From Naegleria gruberi (lineage: Eukaryota), in the NCBI GenBank assembly GCA_000004985.1, contig GG738893.1: a stretch of DNA of 64,000 nucleotides. One strand, written 5' to 3'. Shown here piece by piece: positions 2 through 55,118 of this stretch. A program made the position numbers and the translations under genes. Each line of letters opens with the position of its first letter. Within the stretch, counting starts at the first letter, position 1. The notes beneath the pieces were generated by a model that saw nothing but the letters and a program-made list of their open reading frames with translations, did no database searches and was not told the origin of the DNA.

Positions 2-424
2 CAGGAAAAGATACGACAAGAAAAGTTGGAAATGGAAAGAAAAATCAAAGAAGCAGAGGAAAAGAAGAAGAAAATGGAAGAGGAGAGAAAACTCAAAGAG
101 GAGCAAGCAAAGAAGCAAAAGGAAGAGGAAGAGAAAAAGAAAAAAGAAGAAGAAGAAAAGAAGAAAAAGGAAGAAGAGGAGAAGAAGAAAAAAGAGGAGG
201 AAGAAAAGAAGAAACTTGAGGAAGAGAAGAAACTCAAAGAGGAGCAATTAAAAAAAGAAGAAGAAGAGAAGAAACAAAAGGAAGAACAAGAACGAAAGCA
301 AAATGAAGAGAAGAAACTCAAAGAGGAAACTGAAAACAAGAAACTAGATGAAGAAAATCAATCCAAGTCAACCAACAACTCTTCAATTAGTGCCGCTACC
401 TCATCCAATCCTAAATCTGCCTAA
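2..424 (+). CDS. 3' end of a gene truncated by the window edge: K/E-rich charged repeat region (EEEKKKK repeats) followed by an S/N-rich tail
   Basis: The frame is open from nt 2 with no upstream stop and ends with TAA at 422-424. The translation is highly repetitive (EEEEKKKK)n, so only the C-terminal part of the protein is inside the window. Confidence 0.45.
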   Translation, partial: QEKIRQEKLEMERKIKEAEEKKKKMEEERKLKEEQAKKQKEEEEKKKKEEEEKKKKEEEEKKKKEEEEKKKLEEEKKLKEEQLKKEEEEKKQKEEQERKQNEEKKLKEETENKKLDEENQSKSTNNSSISAATSSNPKSA

Positions 425-4675: not shown

Positions 4676-6959
4676 TTATTTCCATTGAGGTTTTGCATAT
4701 TTAGTCTCTGCTTGTTGCTGCTGTCTCAACAAACTCATAGAGTTGGCTATTTTCTTAATATATTCTGGTGATTTGTGAATTACAGGTTTAAAGCTACACT
4801 CTGCCATCTCGCGTTGATCTTTTTCCTTCTCCATTTCTTCCAATTTCTTTTTGGTATTTTGGCTTCTTGTTTCCAATCTTTCTTTATGACTCTGCGGCGA
4901 ATAGTTCAAGATACCTGTACTCCTAGCGATTGAGGGTTTGAAGGTTGTTTCTTGTTTGAGTTTTAGCTCTGCTTCTTCCCTTTGTTGCTTAATTCTGTGG
5001 GCAATCTTTTCTTGATCACCCTTGCAAAGTTGATCAATTGTTTTACTCGGTTTAGATTTTGCCCTTTCAGTAATGAAGGGCTTAAATGAAAATTGTTCTT
5101 CTTCCTTTTCGTTCTGTAATTTGGTGTGATTAAAAAAAATTGAAGAATAAACTTACAATCTTCTTCCTATGCTTCAGAATTTCATTCCTCTTCTCTTGAT
5201 CCAAACCATGAAATATTTCCATACTCTTATTATTCAAAGCTGGTTTGTAGGAAAACTCTGTCTGTCTAATGAAATCAATCTTTTCCTCCTTCTTTGATAA
5301 TGTTTGATTTTGTCTTTTTAAAAACTCTTCAAAATTTCCTGTTGGTCTATATTTTCCAGCAGATTTAGGCCTAGATTCCTTATTTTGATTTTTCCTTTTG
5401 ATAACTGTATCATCAGACGCTAAACGCCTGCTGAGTCTTAAAAACGGATCTTCTGATAAGTACTTAATACTCGATTGATGTGAAACTTTTGGATCTAAGG
5501 TATTAGGTTTGAAAGTATAATCAATAGATTCATCTTTCTTTTTCTCGATTGGTTTCTTAGGTTCTAAATACTTAGGTTGAGCATTTGAGCTCTTAATTTT
5601 TGGTTTAAATGTACACGTTTTTCTAAATTCATCTTCACTTAGTTTGTATCTATTCTCATCGATTTTGTCCATCACTCTGAATGAATCAACATAAAGCCTA
5701 TCATACACTCCAACTTCTTCATCAAGTTTTCGAAGTGAGATTGGATTAATTTCTGGTTTAAATGAGCAGTCTTTCTTTAGCGAGTCTTGCAGCGCCTTCT
5801 CCATTGTTTTTTTATCTTGTTCTACCTTTTCCTTCCATCTACTCGCTCTTTCAACAAAAGATTCTGTCTCTATTATTGCACTATTATATTTGCTAATGTT
5901 TGGATGAAAAGTACATTCAGCCATTTTCTTTGAATCATCTTCTAGAGATTTGTCCAAATTTCTCTTTCGTTTGTCGAGAGAAAAGCTGAACGGCACTGGT
6001 TTTGTTAGTGTCTTCTTTTCCAATTGTTTTGTCGGTGATGATTTCATTGGAGAGGTATATTGGTTCAATAAATTAATGGATGACTCAGATTTGAAATTTG
6101 TTGATCTCTGATTGTTATATTGTGGAGATGAATAGGAATCAATTTTCTTTTCAGGGCTATTTCCTTGCAACAGTTTGCTTATCATTGAATCTATTTGTTT
6201 CAGTTGTTCACTTGTTTCTGCTATTGAAGAAACATTGGAAAGATGGCTAACATTATGTGAAGGCGATTTCGGAATAATCTGAACTTTCCCACTCTTTTTC
6301 AAGCCATCATCACTGCCATAACTTAAATTAAGCATACTCTTCCCAACTCTACTATTTTCAGGAGATTTTTCTTTTGATTTTGTTTGAGAATTAGACTCTG
6401 TGAAGGAGCAATATTGTTCAATAAATTTAGCAATTTCACTCCTTTCCTCATCTTCAACATATGAAGCTGCATCAGATACAAAATTTCCATCAGACTGTTC
6501 AATAACTCCCAATGCTTCTAACATTGATTCCCTTTCCTTATCATTATTATCAATCATGTCCAAGAAGTGATGATAATGAACATGTTTTTCTTTCGGGCTC
6601 TTTTGTTTACTTTGATCCTCAGCTGTAATGATATTCCACATTGGTTGGTTATTTTCATCCGGTTCTTCATCATCCTCATGGAATGAACGCTTTTCCATTC
6701 CATCATCTTCCTCATTACTCATTCCATCATCCTCAGAAAGCGATAAATCATCAATACTCTGATGTAAATCAAAATCAAACTTTTCTCCTACTCTGGAAAA
6801 TAAGGCTTTTTGTTTCTGAAATTCCTCATCTACATCGTCAATATTTCTTCCCTTATATAAAAATTGATATTTCTGGAGAGGAGTTTGTTCCAAAGATGAT
6901 GATGAAGTATTTCGCTGCTTCTGCTCGACAGTATCAAACAGAGCGCCATTTCTACTCAT
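4676..6959 (-). CDS. Two-exon gene, complement(join(4676..5113,5157..6959)): about 747-aa protein with at least 9 copies of a short C/T-x-F-K/H-P-x-I motif (AECTFHPNI, DCSFKPEI, KTCTFKPKI, DYTFKPNT, EFSYKPAL, EEQFSFKPFI, ETTFKPSI, AECSFKPVI) separated by charged linkers
   Basis: The ORFs 5130..6959 and 4676..4909 are joined by a 43-nt intron (GTAAGT...ACAG on the minus strand, + coordinates 5114..5156). The junction is in phase (AAG ATT | AAC GAA). The upstream ORF otherwise reads into intron as VSLFFNFF*. The motif repeats continue across the splice. Confidence 0.65.
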
Positions 6960-7195: not shown

Positions 7196-8697
7196 CTATT
7201 TTTTCGAAGATGGTTGTTTAGAATTTCTTCTAATCATTTCAACTGTGGTGGCAACATTTTGTTCAGTTTGTTGAAGGGCACCAGCTTTGTTTTCATTTCT
7301 ATTCTTCAATTGTCCACATGCACCAAGAATATCTTGTCCTTTGCTGTGTCTTACCGGTGCTGAGATTCCATTCTTGTAGAGGTATTTGGAAAATTCTTCA
7401 ATTCTTTCATCTGATGAGCATTCAAATCCACTTCCTTCCCATTCATTAAATGCAATCAAATTGACTGAACATGGAATGTCTTTAACCAATTTTACAAGAC
7501 GTTTGGCATCGTCAATAAAGTCATTCACATGATTCAACATGACATATTCGAAAGTGATATGTCTATTATTGTTTTTGAAGCATTGCTCTCTAAGGGTTTC
7601 AAATAAAACCTCCAGAGGGAAAATCTTATTAATTGGCACAATGTTATCTCTCAATTCATTGGTTGTGGCGTGAAGACTGATTGCTAAATTCACTCCCAAA
7701 TCATTGACAACATCTGGAATCAAGTTACATACTCCAGAAGTACTCACAATGATTTTTCTCTTTGAAATTCCACATCCATCACTCAAAATTTCAATGGCCT
7801 TTTTAACATTTTTGTAATTACTGCAATTAAAGGATTATGGTAAATTATTTAAATAATGAAATCAAAAACCTACTAGAGTGGTTCTCCTTCTCCCATAAAT
7901 ACAATATTATTAACAAATGATTTTTCAATAGAGGCTCTCTTTCTTTCTTCCTCTGTCATGTATATTGGAAAGTCCATCAATCTATGTTTAACTGAAACTA
8001 ATTGGCTTACAATTTCTGAAGCCAATAAATTTCTCTCAATAGGAGCTGTTCCAGTTCTGCAAAACTTACAATTCAATGAACATCCAACCTGACTACTCAA
8101 ACACACAGTTCCTCTTCCAAAACTATCACTAGCTTTTGGTGGATGGTAAATATATACTGCCTCAACTTTGTTAAATTGTTTTTGTTCTTTGAGAGTTGGT
8201 TTCTTCATTGGTGAAATTGCAACATCAGCATCAGAAATATTCTGTTGATTACCACATGATGACGATGCTGATGAAGTGGTGGAAACAATTGTACTATCAA
8301 CACTATTATCTGCAACAGGTGGCACATATTTTGGATTTTGAAAAGCAAATAAAAACTTTCTCGTGTGTTTATCCTTCTTGGATTTAATTTCTTCCTCAAT
8401 ATTTCCCAAAATATCAATAGAGTATAGTTCCGATAATGATTGACGATCGGATTTGGTCAAGACTGTAATATCATCAAATTTTCTGGCTCCAAACTTGTAT
8501 ATGAATTTATAAATTTCATTCAATCGGAATGATGATGCAACATGTGGATGAGTCTTTTCCAATATTTCCTTCATTTCTGTCTTGTTTAATCCCATCAGGG
8601 ATTTTCTAACAATTTGTGTTGAATAGAATCTGTGTTGAAAGTTTCCATTGATGACAATTTGTCGAGCACATAAATTTCCTAAAATCAATTTTTGCAT
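7196..8697 (-). CDS. RlmN/Cfr-family radical SAM RNA methyltransferase (23S rRNA m2A2503 / tRNA m2A37 type), two exons complement(join(7196..7820,7874..8697)), with N-terminal extension
   Basis: The CxxxCxxC cluster (CSLNCKFCRTG) is followed by FMGEGEPL(Y) and then ISLHATTNELRDNIVPINK...FEYVMLNHVNDF...IPCSVNLIAFNEW...ACGQL, which aligns along the whole length of bacterial RlmN. A 53-nt intron (GTAGGT...TTGCAG) splits MGEGEPL|YNYKNV in phase 2. N-terminal residues MQKLILGNLCARQIV...RFYS look like an organelle-targeting presequence. An S/T-rich insert precedes the Cys cluster. Confidence 0.8.
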
Positions 8698-9082
8698 TTT
8701 TTTTCAATCAAATTAAATTTTGAATTTTTTAATAAATTGGAATGAATAATGCTCTTTCCTAATAAATTCCATTCTGAAGAGTTGTGCTGAAATATGAAAT
8801 ACTATTCATTGTTAAATAACAACATTCTCAAACCAAACAAACCAATCATTGTTCTATCAATTAAAGAGCTAGACCATTCTTCTTCTTTCTAATAAATTCC
8901 TCAAATACAAATAGTTATCTTTGTAGTTTACTAACTACATCATCCTTTCCCTGTTACACACAGTCACTGAACTTTGCGTGATAGAGTGGTCGTGTCACTA
9001 AATTTGTTCTCAATCACTATCGAAACTCCACTTAACTCGTTACCCTGTCAGTTTAACTGCACTTCTATCACATACAAAAAAA

Positions 9083-9982
9083 ATGATGAAAAACCTCTCA
9101 TCCAAAATTATAGCAAGTTTGCTCTTGTTGAGTTTGGTTGTTCTCTTTACATTTGTTTCATCAACAAATGCCAAGAAGAGCGAATCATCCTTGTCAACTC
9201 AACTCGCCTCTGCTTTTAAACTTGAAAAGAAGCAAAGAAAGAAGACAAGAACATCAAAGAGAAGACCAGTTAGTAAACGTCTTTTGAAGAAGAGACGTCA
9301 ACTCTGTCGTAGAATTAGACTTGTCAAGAAGCAAATTAAAAAACTCACATTCAAGATTGCTAAAGCCTCTGATAGAGCCATGACCAAGATTGTTAGAAAG
9401 ATCAAGGTTAGAAAACTCTTGCTCCGTGCTTTGAGAAGAAAGCTCAGATCACTCAAGAGAAAGATTCAAAGAAAGCAAAGAAAGGTCAAGAAATCTCAAA
9501 AGAAGAATCGTCGTTTGACTTCTACCTTGAGAAAGCTCAAGAGAAAGGTCCTTAGATTGGCCAGAAAGCAACAACAAAAGAGAAGATCACCAAGAAGAAG
9601 ACCAAGAATTATCATCCTTGCATTCAATCGTGCTCAATTCTTCAACAAATTGGTGAGAAATAGCAAACATCGTTTCTATGGAAAGAGAGGATTCAGAAAG
9701 TATGCTCGTTTGTTGAGTTTACTCAAATTGGTCAGAGCTAAGAAGGCTGCTTTGACAAAGAAGAGAAACTTCTACGCAAAGAAGGAAAAGAGAATTGTCT
9801 CCTTGTTGAGAAAATTAAAACAAAGATGGTCTGTTGGAAGAAGTAGAAGATCATCAAAGAGAACCAAGATTACAAGAATTGTCTTGAGAAATGTTGACTC
9901 AAAGAAGAAGGTTAAACTCGTCATTCCAAAGAGATTGAAGAAGAAGGTTAAGAAGATTGTTGTTTATAGTGTTAAACAATAA
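9083..9982 (+). CDS. Secreted (signal-peptide-bearing), extremely basic K/R-rich 299-aa protein
   Basis: N-terminus MMKNLSSKIIASLLLLSLVVLFTFVSSTNA|KK is a canonical ER signal peptide. The remainder is about 40% Lys+Arg with no acidic stretches. Codon usage is mixed (aag, aga, cgt, ttg, ctc) rather than plain A-runs, arguing for a real CDS. It is transcribed divergently from the RlmN-like gene, sharing a 385-bp promoter region. Confidence 0.55.
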   Translation: MMKNLSSKIIASLLLLSLVVLFTFVSSTNAKKSESSLSTQLASAFKLEKKQRKKTRTSKRRPVSKRLLKKRRQLCRRIRLVKKQIKKLTFKIAKASDRAMTKIVRKIKVRKLLLRALRRKLRSLKRKIQRKQRKVKKSQKKNRRLTSTLRKLKRKVLRLARKQQQKRRSPRRRPRIIILAFNRAQFFNKLVRNSKHRFYGKRGFRKYARLLSLLKLVRAKKAALTKKRNFYAKKEKRIVSLLRKLKQRWSVGRSRRSSKRTKITRIVLRNVDSKKKVKLVIPKRLKKKVKKIVVYSVKQ

Positions 9983-10330
9983 ATATTTAATTTGAATTTC
10001 CTTAAATTGATGAAATAGTTTACAGTTTTTAGGTGGTATGGAAATAATTATTTAATTAGTTGATGATTATGAAAATAACTGTAATTACTTCGGTATGTTC
10101 TGTTAAAGAATGAACATTCTCGCGTTATTGAAACCAATCCAGTTCACGTAGGCGAATGATGACGATTCTTGACGAAACTCAAATAAAAGTTTGTATTATT
10201 AATATCAATAATAAAACAATAGAATTTTCAATCTTGCGTAACAAACAACCATTAGATCATCATAATTAAATTTTGTCACTTGTCTTAGCCAATAGGGAGC
10301 CTTTCGAATAATTAACCATCATAAAAAAAA

Positions 10331-15833: not shown

Positions 15834-18800
15834 ATGAATTTACTTCATGCTTTCACCATCTTGTTGTTGGTTTTCACTCTCATACTCCAAATAACCAATG
15901 GACCTGTCGAATGCCAAACCATCAACACAATTGCTGGCTCGCTTCCATATGGCTATAATGGTGATAATCAAGTGGCAATAAAAGCAGAACTCTACCAACC
16001 AAAACAATTGGCTTATTACAATAACGAGGTTTATATTGCTGACAGTGCCAATCATATGATTAGAAAAATACTTTCGAATGGGACAATAGTTTCGATTGCT
16101 GGTTGGATGGGTTCACCTGGCTATAATGGTGATAATCAATTGGCTAACATGGCTAAACTCAATGCTCCAAATGGTTTGGCAATTTCTTCTGCCACAGGTC
16201 ACATCTATATCGCGGGTTAGTTGTTAATTTTTATTGGAATTTAACTTTTGCAAGATACTCAAAATTATCGAGTTAGAAAGATTGTAAATGGTGTCATTTC
16301 AACAATTTCTGGAACTGGAGTACAAGGCAGTTGTTCAGATGGAGTTCTAGCTATCAACTGTGCATTATACTCTCCATCCAATATTGCTATTCGAACTATT
16401 GAAGGAGTTGGTGATGAAATTTACATTGCCGATTCGAGTATCGTTAGGAAGATTGGAACAGATGGAAAAATCTATAGATATGCAGGTGGAGGCAATGAAA
16501 ATATTGAGTATGGCTCTGCAGTTTCAGCTCAACTTGCCTCTCCTCTCAGTGTTGGAATTTCACCCACTACAGGAGAGCTCTTCATTGGAATAGGAATCAA
16601 TTATATTATTAGAAAGGTCTTTCTGAATGGTACAATAGTTTCTGTAGCGGAGAAGGAAAGTTCTATTCAGGGTTTTGTTTCGGGTGTTACTGGAATATCA
16701 TTTTCAAATACTTCTCTCTATTACACAGAGTATCAGGCACGTGTTAAACAACTATTCCTCTCAAATGGAACATTTTCTGTTATTGGTGGAAACCTTAATG
16801 TTATGGTTACCAATTATCAAGATAACATTTTGGCAACAGATGCCACTCTATTAGGTCTGAAAGGAATTGCATTCTCTCCAGAAAAGAATGAAGTGTATAT
16901 CTCTGAATATGATTCATTCGCTACTAATGGAAGAGTGAGAAAGATTGGATCTGATGGATATATTGTAACAGTGGCAGGTAATTTGACAAGTTTGAATAGT
17001 GGATATAATGGTGATGATATTATGGCCACGGATGCAAAATTGTATAGACCTGAGGCTGTAATAGTTTCTAATAGTGGGGATGTCATAATTTCAGATACTG
17101 GTAATAGTAGAATTAGAAAGATTCTGTCTAGTGGTAAAATTGTGACCATTGTTGGACAAGGAAACTTTGGTAATACTGCAAATTATAATGGAGATGGTAT
17201 TCCTGCTATTGCTGCAAATATCAAATTTCCAAGTGCTATTTTACTTTCATCTAGCAATGAATTGTACATTGCCGATTTTGGTAATTATCGAGTTCGAAAG
17301 GTACTTGCTAACGGAACGATAACAACCATCGCAGGAACAGGTTCTAACATAGAATCTACTGCCTTAGATTTGGCCATTAATGTTGGAATTGGATCACCAA
17401 TAGGTTTAGCTATTTTTGGTGATGAGGTTTATTTCACCACAAATTCCAATAGAGTTAGAAAGATTTTGAGTAATGGAACTTTAATAGTCTATGCAGGTAC
17501 TGGAACAGTTGGCTATGATTCAAATAATGTATTGGCCGTTAATGCTAAACTAAATGCTCCAACATTCTTGGCTGTTTATCCTAATGGAGATTTGCTGATT
17601 TCAGATAGTTTCAATTATATGATTAGAAAAGTTCTGACAAATGGTACCATTATTCGAGTTGCAGGAACTGGAACATTTGGATACAATGGAGACAACATCT
17701 TGGCTATAAATGCCCAATTGGCTAATCCACAAGGAATTCATATACTTTCGAACGGTGATATTCTATTCTCAGATCAGTTCAATTATAGGGTGAGAAAAAT
17801 TCTGACCAATGGAACAATTTTAACAGTTGCTGGATCTGGAACTTTTGGATACAATGGAGAAAATTTACCAGCTTTAAGTACACAATTATATGCAGCTCAG
17901 GGCTTGGCAGTTTCACCTATCGATGGTTCGATTATTTTAGCTGACACGTCAAATCACAGAATTAGGAAAATATTAGATTTCTGTGATTCGAATAGAACTT
18001 GTAATAATAATGGTTTCTGTAACACAACCTCTAATCAATGCGTTTGTTATTCGGGATGGATTGGGTCAACATGTTCCTCCTTTTCATGTGATGCCTTAAA
18101 CAATTGTAATGGAAATGGAAAGTGTATTGGAAATAACACTTGCCAATGTGATTTGGGATGGAGAGGAAATTCTCAATGCAGTCAATATTCATGTGAAATT
18201 TACAATAATTGTTATGGAAATGGAATGTGTGTGAAAAACAATACATGTGAGTGTTATTCTGGATGGAGAGGATCATCTGCTAATTGTTCACAGTTTTCAT
18301 GTGATGGAGTGGCAAACTGCTCAGAACATGGTATTTGTATGGGAAATAATTCATGCTCATGTCACACTGGATGGAAAAATAACCAATGCTCAGAAATTTC
18401 ATGTGACATTCTCAATAATTGTTATGGAAATGGCATTTGTAAAACGAATAATACATGTGAATGCAATTCAGGATGGAAAGGTGCCTCAAATTGCTCTCTT
18501 TTCACATGTGAAGGTGTTGGAAATTGCAGTTCTCATGGAAAATGTATTGGAAATAACACTTGCCAATGTGATTTGGGATGGAAAGGAAATTCTCAATGCA
18601 GTCAATTTTCTTGTGAGATTTACAATAATTGCAATGGAAACGGATATTGTAAAAGTAGCAATAGTTGTGAATGTAATTCTGGATGGAAAGGTTCATTAGA
18701 TTGTTCCCAATTCTCATGCGAAGGCGTCAACAATTGTTCATCTCATGGTATTTGTTATGGAGCCAATACTTGTGTATGTGAAAAGGGATGGAAAGGAAAT

Positions 18801-20102
18801 TCTCAATGTTCTCGTCCATCATGTGAAGAATTGCAGAATTGTAATGGTAATGGAAACTGCACACTCAATGGCAACTGTTCCTGTAATAGTGGCTGGGAGG
18901 GAGCTGATTGTTCCACCATTTCAAAAGTGATAGCAGCCAATGAATCCAATAATAATACTGTGACCATTGTAGTGACAGTTGTGGCTGTAGTCGTTGTTTT
19001 ATTGATTATTGCTGCCATTGTGATAATAGTCATAGCAGTTATATTGTCAAGAAAGTATGTGAAGAAACCTAGCAATGAGTCGAAGCATGAAACAATTTTG
19101 AAGAATGATTTTGAGCTCATTGATGAAAATACGAATAGCAATACCATGACGTCGATGAAACCTGTTGAAACCATCCAATCGACGTCAATGAACGAAACCT
19201 CAATAGTTTCAGATTACCCATCTGATTCATTTCTTAGCTCAACAAAAGTTTCCTCCATTGTTTCGTCATCAGCAAAACCACTCACTCCAACTAACTCTTC
19301 AAGTCAATTCTCAATGCTTAAGGATCGTTATCAGATACAGGAAGTAATTGGGCAAGGATCTTTCGGCAAATGTTTTCTTTGTTTAGATTTGAAAAAACAA
19401 AATCAACCAGTTGCTATCAAAACCATAAGTATAGGAGAGAACAAACACTCAAAGATCATTGATGAATGCTCCAAGACTATTTCTTACAAACATCCAAGAT
19501 TGGTACAAGTTTATGAATTCTTCGAATCTGAACTTCTCAATTCAATTTGCATTGTAATGAAATTTTACAATGGAGATTTGGAAACACTATTGAAAAAGCA
19601 ACAAGGATTCCTACCTGAAAGTATGATCATCAAAATGATGAAACAATTAGGTGATGGTTTGGATTATCTTCACAATGAAAAGATGATTATTCACAGAGAT
19701 ATCAAACCAAAGAATATTTTCATTGAATCATTCGATATTGAAAGAGAGGAAATCAATGTAGTTATTGGAGATTATGGAGAAGCAAAGGATCTGGGAGAAA
19801 CCAGCAATACAGTTGCAGGAACAATTATCTACATGGCTCCAGAGGTCTTTTCCAGAAAATATGATTGTAGCGCTGATATATTTTCTCTGGGAGTGACACT
19901 TGTACAAAGTATGTCAGCAAGTGGATTCGATTTCTCAGTCACGGACAAACTCATGTACGAAGCAGAGGAGAGTGTACTGCAAAGAGTGAGTGAACATTTA
20001 CTTTCCAGAAACTATTCGATTCATTTGTGTGAGTTTGTAATTTCCATGTTATCAAGAGATCCTAAAAAGAGACCTACCTGTTTAGATATTAAGAATTATT
20101 GA
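15834..20102 (+). CDS. Receptor-like protein kinase: signal peptide, about 12 NHL repeats, about 12 tenascin-type EGF-like repeats, TM helix, S/T-rich juxtamembrane region and Ser/Thr-type kinase domain; join(15834..16215,16255..20102)
   Basis: A 39-nt intron (GTTAGT...TTGCAAG) restores the NHL consensus IYIAD|TQNYRVRKI. The motifs (I/L)YIADxxNxR(I/V)RK(I/V) and CxCxxGW(K/R)GxxC recur throughout. The TM helix is VTIVVTVVAVVVVLLIIAAIVIIVIAVIL. The kinase carries GQGSFGK...VAIK, HRDIKPKN, DYG and MAPE. Confidence 0.8.
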
Positions 20103-31720: not shown

Positions 31721-31809
31721 GGGCGGTTAGCTCAGCGGTAGAGCACCGGATTGCAAAGTTAATTGCAGCAGACATCCGATGGTCACGTGTTCGATCCACG
31801 TACCACCCT
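31721..31809 (+). tRNA. tRNA-Cys(GCA) with a roughly 17-nt intron 3' of anticodon position 37
   Basis: Acceptor GGGCGGT/ACCACCC has one C-A mismatch. D-arm is GCTC-AGCGGTA-GAGC. Anticodon stem is CCGGA, loop TTGCAA|intron|A, with anticodon GCA. The intron contains TTGCA, complementary to the anticodon region. T-arm is ACGTG-TTCGATC-CACGT, and the discriminator is U as expected for Cys. Confidence 0.6.
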
Positions 31810-50939: not shown

Positions 50940-51012
50940 CGCCCACCGTGGGGGTCGAACCCACGACCACAAGGTTAAGAGCCTTGCGCTCTACCGACTG
51001 AGCTAGACGGGC
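50940..51012 (-). tRNA. tRNA-Lys(CTT), 73 nt, intact cloverleaf
   Basis: Reverse complement GCCCGTCTAGCTCAGTCGGTAGAGCGCAAGGCTCTTAACCTTGTGGTCGTGGGTTCGACCCCCACGGTGGGCG. The anticodon loop CTCTTAA gives anticodon CTT. All four stems pair, and the sequence is near-identical to metazoan tRNA-Lys-CTT. Confidence 0.9.
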
Positions 51013-51200: not shown

Positions 51201-51273
51201 CGCCCACCGTCGTGGTCGAACCCACGACCACAAGGTTAAGAGCCTTGCTCTCTACCGACTGAGCTAGACGGGC
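51201..51273 (-). tRNA. Second tRNA-Lys(CTT) copy with 4 substitutions relative to the first; the T-stem and one D-stem pair are disrupted, so it is probably a degenerate or pseudo copy (or assembly noise next to the gap)
   Basis: It differs from the 50940..51012 copy at tRNA positions 25, 60, 61 and 63. G51-G63 and G53-A61 would no longer pair. The acceptor, anticodon arm and CTT anticodon are unchanged. Confidence 0.5.
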
Positions 51274-52720: not shown

Positions 52721-53845
52721 ATGGAAGAACATCAATCTCTTGTAATTGACAATGGTTCTGGAATGTGTAAAGCTGGTTTCGCTGGCGAAGATGCTCCACG
52801 TGCTGTTTTTCCTTCATTGATTGGTAGACCAAAACAAAGGTCAATTATGGTTGGAATGGGAAATAAGGATGCCTATGTTGGAGATGAAGCCATGTCAAAG
52901 AAGGGAATCCTCGCTCTCAAATATCCAATTGAGCACGGAATTATCACTAACTGGGATGATATGGAAAAGATTTGGCATCATACTTTCTATAATGAATTGA
53001 GAGTTGGTCCTGAAGAGCATGGTGTCTTATTAACTGAAGCTCCATTGAATCCAAAGGCAAATCGTGAAAAGATGACACAAATCATGTTCGAAACCTTTAG
53101 AGTTCCAGCCATGTATGTGGCCATTCAAGCTGTCTTGTCCTTGTATGCTTCTGGTAGAACTACAGGTATTGTTTTGGATTCAGGTGATGGTGTTTCACAT
53201 ACTGTTCCTATCTATGAGGGTTATGCTTTACCACATGCCATTTTAAGATTGGATTTGGCTGGTCGTGATTTAACTGACTACTTGATGAAGATCTTGATGG
53301 AACGTGGATACAGTTTCAACACCAGTGCTGAACGTGAAATTGTCAGAGATATTAAGGAAAAGCTTTGTTATGTTGCCTTTGACTTTGAAACTGAAATTAA
53401 GAAAGCATCTTAAAGTTCATCCATTGATACTTCATATGAATTACCAGATGGTAATATTATCACAGTTGGAAATGAACGATTCAGATGTCCAGAAGTGTTA
53501 TTCCAACCTAATTTCATTGGAATGGAAGCTGCTGGTGTACACGAAACAACTTTCAATTCTATTGGAAAGTGTGATATTGACATTAGAAAGGATTTATATG
53601 CCAATGTTGTACTTTCAGGTGGTACAACCATGTTTGAAGGAATTGCTGAGAGAATGAACAAGGAATTGACAGCTATGGCTCCAGCCTCAATGAAGATTCG
53701 TGTTGTTGCTCCACCAGAAAGAAAGTATTCAGTTTGGATTGGTGGTAGTATTCTCTCTTCATTATCAACCTTTCAATCTATGTGGATCACAGCAGAGGAG
53801 TATGAAGATGCTGGATGTGCCATCGTTCATAGAAAGTGTTTCTAA
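52721..53845 (+). CDS. ACT: Actin paralog (about 85% identical to conventional actin), complete 375-codon frame except for one in-frame TAA at 53411..53413
   Basis: [32 protein letters not shown]...[10 protein letters not shown][TAA][27 protein letters not shown]...IVHRKCF. The two ORFs are in the same frame, and the TAA occupies exactly one residue position of the actin alignment (ATAAS|S|SSLEKSYELPDG). Everything else is intact. Confidence 0.8.
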
Positions 53846-53955: not shown

Positions 53956-54075
53956 TTAAGGTAAAAAGACTACAGCACCACAGGTTCCCAAGTTGTCTCC
54001 AACCTCAGTACTGATGTGGCTCGACGATGCTTAACTTCTCAAATCGGACGGGATGAGGTGCATTCATCGTGATAT
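53956..54075 (-). rRNA. 5S ribosomal RNA gene (about 119 nt) followed by a T5 Pol III terminator
   Basis: Reverse complement GCTACGGCCATATCACGATGAATGCACCTCATCCCGTCCGATTTGAGAAGTTAAGCATCGTCGAGCCACATCAGTACTGAGGTTGGAGACAACTTGGGAACCTGTGGTGCTGTAGTCTTTTT aligns end-to-end with eukaryotic 5S rRNA (GCCTACGGCCATACCA...GGGAATACCGGGTGCTGTAGGCTTT). It is GC-richer than the flanking DNA. Confidence 0.85.
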
Positions 54076-55118
54076 GGCCGTAGCCATTCAATTAACAAAA
54101 ATCTTAATCATAAATAATACAACCTACAAAAACAAGCTCTTAATCATAAAAAATAAGTTTTTGTTTATGGTTAACACTTTTCACTTTTCCATTTGGAAAC
54201 ACATTGACGATATTGTTCAGTAGTTGCCAATTCTTCAATTGATTTCTTATTGACACAATAAGTAATGATTAACTACATTCTTGTAAATGTTTCATCAATC
54301 CATTGTTTCATGAATGCTGGCATTGAGTACATTGGAAATTGGAAGAAATAAATAAAGATGAATCCTGACCATCTATTTGTTTCAAGTTTGTAATGGAAAC
54401 CAATTTCTCAAACCATTGAGAAAACAATCATATTCTAACCCACCTTCATCACAAATTATTACAATTGTTATGGTATTCAGTTGTTATTTCAGAAAACTTT
54501 CAATCATGCAGATTAATCTTTATAATGTTCCATATCAAGCATGTGGTATCTTGTTTTCTATTTATTGGGTTTAGCATTAGAGATGTCATTACATTTGAGA
54601 GTTATTTACAATAATTATTGATATGGACTGGTAATCTACCGAATTTGGATGAAAGAGACAAAGTACTGTTCATGCCCTTTCAGTTAATATCATTCACTGA
54701 ATGTAAGTTATGAATTAACATGCTGTTTCAAGGTATACAATGCAATCTAATTGTTATCAGAAAGTTGAAGAAACGAACCTAAAATCAGCCAAGTTGTTTT
54801 GTTTGTGAAAAGATATTGTGATATCAACGAAATAATCATTTTCACAGAAAGTGAATCTGATTTTTCAGGATCCCTTAGTCCAGCCAACTGTCAACTAATC
54901 AACATCTATTCGAATGTTAAAAATGTCAGATTTTTCAACATCAACTTTAGTGTCCAAGTCATATTGTTTGACCTACATCAACATTTTAAAACAAAACAAT
55001 CTTTCCATACATATGAAAGTGTCACCAATCATTGTCAATTTTCATTCACAAACTTGGAATAAGTTTTTTTTGAAACAAGCTGTCTTCCATCCTATCCACT
55101 TTCAACTAACAAGACTGT

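Follow-up and report, generated by a model that had tools for sequence, protein, structure and literature searches.

The 64,000-nucleotide stretch of Naegleria gruberi nuclear DNA analysed here (contig GG738893.1, ~33% GC; hereafter the window) carries, at positions 9083-9982 of the + strand, an open reading frame (ORF) for an extremely basic protein of 299 amino acids (aa), to which we refer as the polycation. An earlier reading of the bare letters, made without databases (the sequence-only reading), had singled out this ORF, put its content of Lys plus Arg (K+R) at about 40% and its Cys count at one, and proposed that the N-terminus be examined with Phobius and that transcripts and homologues be sought. 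Translation reproduced the ORF exactly, and its product was 100% identical to NAEGRDRAFT_81042 (EFC40295.1; XP_002673039.1; UniProt D2VS81), an annotated but uncharacterised hypothetical protein of N. gruberi whose gene sits on a 337-kb scaffold. The polycation contains 64 Lys and 50 Arg residues, equivalent to 38.1% K+R over the whole 299 aa and 41.6% past residue 30, together with 5 acidic residues (D+E) and 1 Cys, so that the earlier figures held, and its computed pI is ~12. The gene and its immediate surroundings comprise the following features:

9083-9982, + strand: complete single-exon coding sequence, 299 codons plus TAA (from translation; 100% identity over 299 aa to the annotated protein)
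9083-9172, + strand: predicted signal peptide, aa 1-30 (19-residue Kyte-Doolittle profile and published Phobius prediction; cleavage site from the -3/-1 rule only)
9173-9979, + strand: predicted mature polycation, aa 31-299 (net charge +107, ~32.6 kDa)
9275-9586, + strand: long helix predicted for aa 65-168, along which runs a narrow Leu/Ile/Val heptad stripe (AlphaFold, periodicity and hydrophobic moment)
9590-9979, + strand: less repetitive C-terminal module (aa 170-299), in which AlphaFold predicts helices at aa 183-193 and 201-249 ahead of a disordered tail
9983-10180, + strand: 3' flank, presumed 3' untranslated region (UTR), colinear with the environmental contig L001 described below
8698-9082, no strand assigned: intergenic region of 385 bp shared with the divergent RlmN-like gene, presumably holding the promoter and 5' UTR
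7196-8697, - strand: RlmN/Cfr-type radical-SAM rRNA methyltransferase gene with two exons (two ORFs and a short intron of ~86 nt)

The polycation gene is genuine, and its reading frame is not a product of chance. The frame was free of stops over 326 codons (chance P ~2e-11 at the base composition of the window), the longest open run in the remaining five frames across the same stretch being 82 codons. The ATG at 9083, in the context aaaaaaaATG, is the earliest to follow the in-frame stop. Net basicity, expressed as the fraction of K+R minus that of D+E, was 0.36 for the polycation compared to 0.15 for the runner-up among the ORFs of the window. A reading of the locus as a non-coding RNA was rejected, as Rfam gave no match at the ORF or around it and the opposite strand is closed. 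At the left edge of the window, a Glu/Lys-rich ORF with EEEKKKK repeats enters at positions 26-424 (+ strand); with its mixed charge, it is the compositional opposite of the purely basic polycation.

The N-terminus of the polycation is laid out as a signal peptide, with an n-region of MMKNLSSK (two Lys), an h-region of IIASLLLLSLVVLFTFV and a c-region of SSTNA followed by KK. The c-region places Thr at position -3 and Ala at position -1, as the -3/-1 rule would have it. The 19-residue Kyte-Doolittle hydropathy reached its maximum of 2.52 at aa 9-27 and did not exceed 0.56 anywhere past residue 40; the profile contained no second hydrophobic segment, and the C-terminus carries no KDEL or HDEL. 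Charges read from the sequence amount to ~+3 on the N-terminal side of the core and +1 over the first 15 residues beyond it. By the charge-difference rule, such flank charges favour passage of the C-terminal part to the lumen, and the polybasic part is accordingly placed there. In the proteome-wide Phobius analysis that accompanies the paper on the Acrasis kona genome, jgi|Naegr1|81042 is scored SP=Y, TM=0 (PMC11589745, Supplementary Data 1). The sequence-only reading had described a 'classic cleavable' signal peptide of the endoplasmic reticulum (ER); the order of n-, h- and c-regions and the Phobius result bear out the signal peptide, whereas the core is rather long for the word 'classic'. 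Taken together, these findings make an N-terminal secretory signal the best computational reading, with its cleavage as the best prediction.

Beyond the signal region, AlphaFold, which was run without an alignment because there were no homologues to align, predicted helices at aa 4-54, 65-168 (predicted local distance difference test, pLDDT, mostly >90), 183-193 and 201-249, followed by a disordered tail. The predicted template modelling score (pTM) of 0.26 indicates that there is no compact or globular fold. Within aa 65-168, the hydrophobic residues recurred with a period of 3.51 residues, a periodicity reached in 1.6% of shuffles (P ~0.016). The heptad register is clear from aa 121 onward, with L, I, V, N, L and V at successive a positions and L, K, S, L, L and L at successive d positions; almost all other positions are K or R, and the hydrophobic moment (muH) is 0.73-0.78 within aa 112-165. 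Thus, the 'KxxLRK-type' periodicity that the sequence-only reading had pointed to is real in aa 65-168, but does not extend to the mature region as a whole, for which no dominant hydrophobic period was found. Tandem Repeats Finder (TRF) returned four short, low-scoring arrays only (2-3 copies, period 9-12). Although the long helix displays the heptad periodicity of a coiled coil, it lacks the charges at positions e and g that would allow it to pair with itself. Since like charges repel, this helix would be unstable alone or as a like-charged dimer, and it should fold only upon neutralisation by a polyanion or an acidic partner.

Transcription of the gene has indirect support: the Joint Genome Institute (JGI) model is named estExt_fgeneshNG_pg.C_490088, estExt being the JGI step that extends predicted gene models by mapped expressed sequence tags (ESTs), and the name therefore implies overlapping ESTs. 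Codon use sets the gene apart from the six neighbour genes with which it was compared. AAG accounted for 0.75 of its Lys codons compared to 0.39-0.46 in the neighbours, TTA for 0.05 of its Leu codons compared to 0.18-0.35, and the GC content of third codon positions was 0.40 compared to 0.24-0.28. Arg is encoded by AGA and CGT exclusively, Leu and Phe codons are likewise biased to the preferred set, and every Leu codon of the signal region is TTG or CTC. Lys-Lys pairs were written AAG-AAG in 14 of 16 cases, and the longest run of A in the gene is 6, as short as in 0.6% of simulations with window-typical Lys codon use (P=0.006). Poly(A) tracts cause ribosome stalling. The short A-runs and the preference for AAG-AAG consequently look as if selection had acted on the way in which a Lys-rich chain is translated, or against poly(A) stalling, and we read the polycation as translated and reasonably expressed. 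Trypsin would release only three peptides of at least 7 aa from the mature chain (SESSLSTQLASAFK, IIILAFNR and IVVYSVK). Standard shotgun proteomics would systematically miss such a protein, and its absence from a dataset is not equivalent to absence of the protein.

The search for relatives that had been proposed for this protein returned none that was detectable in any database searched. Pfam, at E values of up to 10, gave chance matches only (AAR2, 0.92; DivIC, 8.9), as did NCBIfam (a sole match to TraP, E=0.45) and a sequence search of the PDB (a sole match to nesprin-1, E=0.34). Foldseek against the PDB with the AlphaFold model gave one non-significant match (E=9.6), to a chain of a pre-60S particle; since a long helix is uninformative for a fold search, this result is not usable. 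A word-indexed search of 5.8 billion proteins recovered the polycation itself and a partial protein, P0002, only. One further match, P0003 (E=3e-4, 25% identity), came from an exhaustive phmmer scan over 1.84 billion cluster representatives; it is a Q/S/L-rich repeat protein of different composition, and we judged the match to be spurious. No homologue was found in JGI metagenomes or in IMG/VR viral contigs, and there is no paralogue within the window. Willaertia magna has an RlmN orthologue that is 60% identical and has kept the downstream neighbour (the gene at 5130-6959 of the window, without a Pfam domain), and the upstream side of its RlmN locus holds other genes and no polybasic ORF, leaving the polycation without a syntenic counterpart there. 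As regards published lists, 81042 is not listed in N. fowleri comparative supplements, XP_002673039 is not among the orthogroups listed in the part of the table of the Acrasis paper that was covered, and we found no mention of the locus tag or accessions in the literature. Because compositional bias lowers the sensitivity of such searches, 'no detectable homologue' is the proper wording; restriction of the polycation to the N. gruberi lineage is part of the interpretation favoured below.

The partial match, P0002, is encoded on L001 (positions 1-952), a Logan contig from metagenome run ERR1078381 (PRJEB11402). This run also holds the neighbouring RlmN gene, with 99% protein identity and a colinear upstream region. 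Positions 340-927 of L001 correspond to 9593-10180 of the window over 588 nt at 99.3% identity, and the shared coding part differs at two sites, both of them non-synonymous (K to N and S to R). The first 339 bases of L001 are absent from the window and encode a genuine N-terminus of TrmO/TsaA type (48 residues; 73% identity over 30 residues to TrmO of Acrasis kona), which is joined in frame to polycation residues 170-299. When P0002 was used as query, no N. gruberi NEG-M protein with a TrmO-type N-terminus was returned, and a search of JGI metagenomes with the TrmO part found nothing. We considered whether the window ORF might itself be a frameshifted or diverged TrmO and rejected this: in tblastn with two TrmO proteins no significant match arose at any place in the window, no frame of the ORF was TrmO-like, and the sole match touching the ORF lay at 9040-9132, spanning the start codon, with E=23. 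The junction in L001 has short microhomology only. Since this microhomology appears too short for a join made by k=31 assembly, a real rearrangement in an environmental N. gruberi-like strain is plausible, the alternative being an assembly chimera. If the rearrangement is true, then the C-terminal 130 residues form a separable module and the locus is evolutionarily fluid.

Taken together, these findings led us to the tentative view, to which we assign a probability of roughly 0.4, that the polycation is a lineage-restricted protein of the secretory pathway, which works as an intact chain by binding polyanions electrostatically. The gene had been annotated as hypothetical and belongs to no known family, and we infer its function, as well as its targeting, cleavage, destination and binding partners, from the predictions described above. 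The antimicrobial, extrusome and cyst-wall roles put forward in the sequence-only reading are candidates for which no homologue offers a lead. Upon translation, the hydrophobic N-terminus would engage the signal recognition particle (SRP) and then the Sec61 translocon, and the signal would probably be cleaved after Ala30. The remaining chain of 269 residues and +107 would enter the lumen and travel on to the phagosome, the cell surface or the medium. Such a chain alone would be unable to keep its helices; contact with a polyanion would neutralise its charge and allow long amphipathic helices to form. Bacterial envelopes (through lipopolysaccharide or teichoic acids), nucleic acid, polyphosphate and acidic glycans are candidate polyanions. 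The Leu/Ile/Val stripe might then permit pairing between helices or shallow insertion into a membrane. In a bacterivorous amoeba, the intact polycation, rather than small peptides cut from it, would most likely serve to agglutinate, permeabilise or condense prey or other anionic material. The lack of homologues, the missing counterpart in Willaertia and the possible strain variant fit the fast evolution that is typical of defence and prey-interaction genes, and argue for this view.

Some known secreted polycations resemble what we propose. In common with peptides of the cecropin, magainin and LL-37 type, the polycation has a predicted signal, a positive charge, helices that are predicted to be induced by anions and a high muH (up to 0.78), and it shares with host-defence peptides a rapid, lineage-restricted evolution. 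In contrast to those peptides, which measure 12-50 aa and carry +2 to +9, the polycation is a chain of 269 aa and +107, its hydrophobic face is a narrow a/d stripe only, it has no acidic pro-region, and there is no sequence relationship. Compared with cationic alpha-helical antimicrobials as a class, then, it possesses the net charge and the amphipathic helix but neither the short length nor the broad hydrophobic face. Polycationic matrix proteins that are secreted, such as the silaffins of diatoms, likewise have a signal peptide followed by a Lys-rich polycation and act by electrostatic condensation, as proposed here. Silaffins, however, have Ser/Lys repeat units, RRIL/RRNL processing sites and an acidic region, all of which are missing from the polycation, and to our knowledge Naegleria makes no silica.

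The heptad stripe allows a more specific and, in our estimation, improbable version of this proposal, namely that the polycation is a natural, secreted 'K/R-coil' that works intact and whose helix of ~100 residues, with the heptad stripe as its sole hydrophobic feature, folds only with a polyanion or an acidic helical partner. K-coil/E-coil pairs and basic leucine zippers have the same heptad a/d stripe of Leu/Ile/Val with basic flanks. Since a same-charge homodimer would be repelled, a helix of K-coil type implies an anionic partner or counter-ion. The polycation differs from K-coils in the length of its helix and in its predicted secretory context, and its acidic partner is hypothetical. Such a protein could serve as an extracellular or phagosomal condenser or adhesive, in the manner of an endogenous poly-lysine, and might glue the anionic surface of the amoeba to bacteria or anionic substrates. 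If so, it would represent a type of secreted protein without a described family.

Should the chain cross the ER membrane and act intact, it would be among the most highly charged secreted proteins described and a natural test case for how the translocon and the ribosome handle a chain of +107; the avoidance of AAA-AAA in the gene already hints at adaptation to that task. It would also be a candidate factor for prey handling or adhesion in a model amoeba about whose cell surface and phagosomes little is known. The polycation is unusual in degree, in that a chain of +107 apparently takes the ER route; orphan low-complexity secreted proteins as such are common in protists.

Several observations weigh against an intact, secreted polycation. 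At 17-19 residues, the core is on the long side for a signal that is cleaved, and its hydrophobicity would suffice to span a membrane; an uncleaved anchor is therefore possible. Lys-Lys stands immediately past the predicted cleavage site and a dense +8 basic cluster begins at residue 46, which could disturb or invert membrane insertion. The chain contains 48 overlapping dibasic motifs, such that a late-secretory protease of kexin or furin type, if Naegleria has one, would shred it. Precursors of defensins and of eosinophil MBP carry a neutralising acidic pro-piece, and there is no acidic pro-piece to neutralise the cation here. With regard to expression, AAG makes up at least 0.70 of the Lys codons in four other ORFs of the window (the actin gene and three more), and since the bias is common to these ORFs it is no proof of very high expression. 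Finally, and weakly, the polycation is absent from one N. gruberi proteomics supplement (a copper study), which says little given just three usable tryptic peptides.

The length of the core bears on the main, though doubtful, alternative, in which the N-terminus is an uncleaved signal anchor in the ER or nuclear envelope and the polybasic helical domain faces the cytosol or nucleoplasm. There it could, with the same degree of doubt, bind ribosomes, RNA, DNA, acidic lipids or tubulin tails, in the manner of the unrelated p180/RRBP1 and ERj1, which likewise carry a long, highly basic domain behind a hydrophobic segment at the N-terminus. The core, at its Kyte-Doolittle value of 2.52, suffices for a span, and long Leu-rich h-regions reportedly favour an orientation with the N-terminus outside (N-exo), a finding said to be that of Wahlberg and Spiess in 1997, which would suit such an anchor. 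The great majority of polybasic helical domains bind nucleic acid in the cytosol or nucleus, and the polycation contains nine K[KR]x[KR] motifs resembling nuclear localisation signals (NLSs), both of which speak for this alternative. A cytosolic site would moreover sidestep the problem of dibasic proteases and of the missing neutralising pro-piece. Although the hydrophobicity of the core would permit a span, cleavage or an orientation opposite to that of such an anchor is what Phobius and the flank charges predict. Phobius called a signal peptide and zero transmembrane (TM) segments, and the fit of SSTNA to the -3/-1 rule likewise argues for a cleaved signal. The flank charges predict that the N-terminus stays in the cytosol, so that the basic domain would end up in the lumen even if the anchor were not cleaved. 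The likeness to p180 also has limits: p180 has a negative N-terminal flank (N-exo) and tandem decapeptide repeats, whereas the polycation has a positive flank, a predicted cleaved signal and, in place of such repeats, four weak TRF arrays, and the database searches gave no match to p180/RRBP1.

Somewhat less likely than an anchored protein, we consider a young, fast-changing orphan gene without a settled function, the product of which is tolerated or rapidly degraded. Such a gene could have arisen, at the same low likelihood, from a purine-rich (AAG/AGA) low-complexity ORF that gained a hydrophobic start and owes its transcription to the bidirectional promoter region of RlmN. The lack of a homologue among 1.84 billion representatives and of a paralogue, together with the absence from the syntenic position in Willaertia, is what one would expect of a young gene. 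So is the environmental strain, which appears to have the 3' half behind an unrelated TrmO start and in which both coding differences are non-synonymous. The absence of a globular fold in the AlphaFold model points the same way, and the richness in AAG and AGA can stem from purine-rich sequence itself. Against this, a 326-codon open frame at 33% GC requires maintenance, the preference among Leu and Phe codons and the avoidance of poly(A) runs point to translation being under selection, shuffled sequences are less ordered than the heptad register that spans ~100 residues, and the gene model is EST-extended. Were the polycation a young orphan instead, it would be an ordinary case of the lineage-specific low-complexity genes that are common in protist genomes.

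The dibasic motifs raise a further, very unlikely, alternative, that the polycation is a polyprotein precursor cut in the secretory route into short cationic peptides, by analogy with multipeptide precursors of antimicrobials. A signal peptide followed by many KR, RR and KK sites would suit such a precursor, and Naegleria releases pore-forming peptides of an unrelated family, the naegleriapores, from multipeptide precursors. The sites are nevertheless so dense that complete cleavage would leave 36 fragments, most of them no longer than 6 aa and deprived of their charge, with only five of at least 13 aa; moreover, acidic spacers and repeated peptide units are both lacking.

Protamines, linker histones and KAPs share with the polycation an extreme K/R content, little acid and a presumed charge-driven binding of polyanions, but they reside in the nucleus or mitochondrion, whereas the polycation has an ER-type hydrophobic N-terminus and a heptad stripe, neither of which occurs in them; no family model matched. 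A nuclear or nucleolar basic protein of histone H1, protamine or ribosome-biogenesis type, with an N-terminus that is irrelevant or bypassed via Met100, is the least probable of the alternatives, and the suggestion in the sequence-only reading of a protamine- or histone-like protein mis-predicted as secreted is not supported: the basicity, the NLS-like motifs and the non-significant pre-60S match (E=9.6, the sole structural one) would suit it, but no Pfam, NCBIfam or PDB family matched, 9083 is both the first ATG and the start of the annotated EST-extended model, the codon bias runs through the signal region, and SRP would meet the hydrophobic N-terminus before the basic part leaves the ribosome.

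The polycation gene lies 385 bp from the divergent RlmN-like gene upstream, and is followed downstream by a PH-domain gene and then by a gene for an AAA ATPase of Vps4/katanin type. Elsewhere in the window, a full-length 5S rRNA gene at 53967-54085 (- strand; Rfam, 105 bits) stands among protein-coding genes, ~560 bp downstream of the actin ORF at 52721-53410 (+ strand). Three tRNA genes were found, at 50940-51012 (- strand), 51201-51273 (- strand) and 31721-31809 (+ strand); the last measures 89 nt, which makes an intron or a long variable arm probable. Judged from the ORF translation alone, the large gene at 15834-20102 (+ strand) resembles a receptor kinase gene in architecture: its product would start with a signal peptide and contain NHL-type repeats, numerous Cys-rich repeats of EGF-like type and a TM segment, with a protein kinase domain at the C-terminus.

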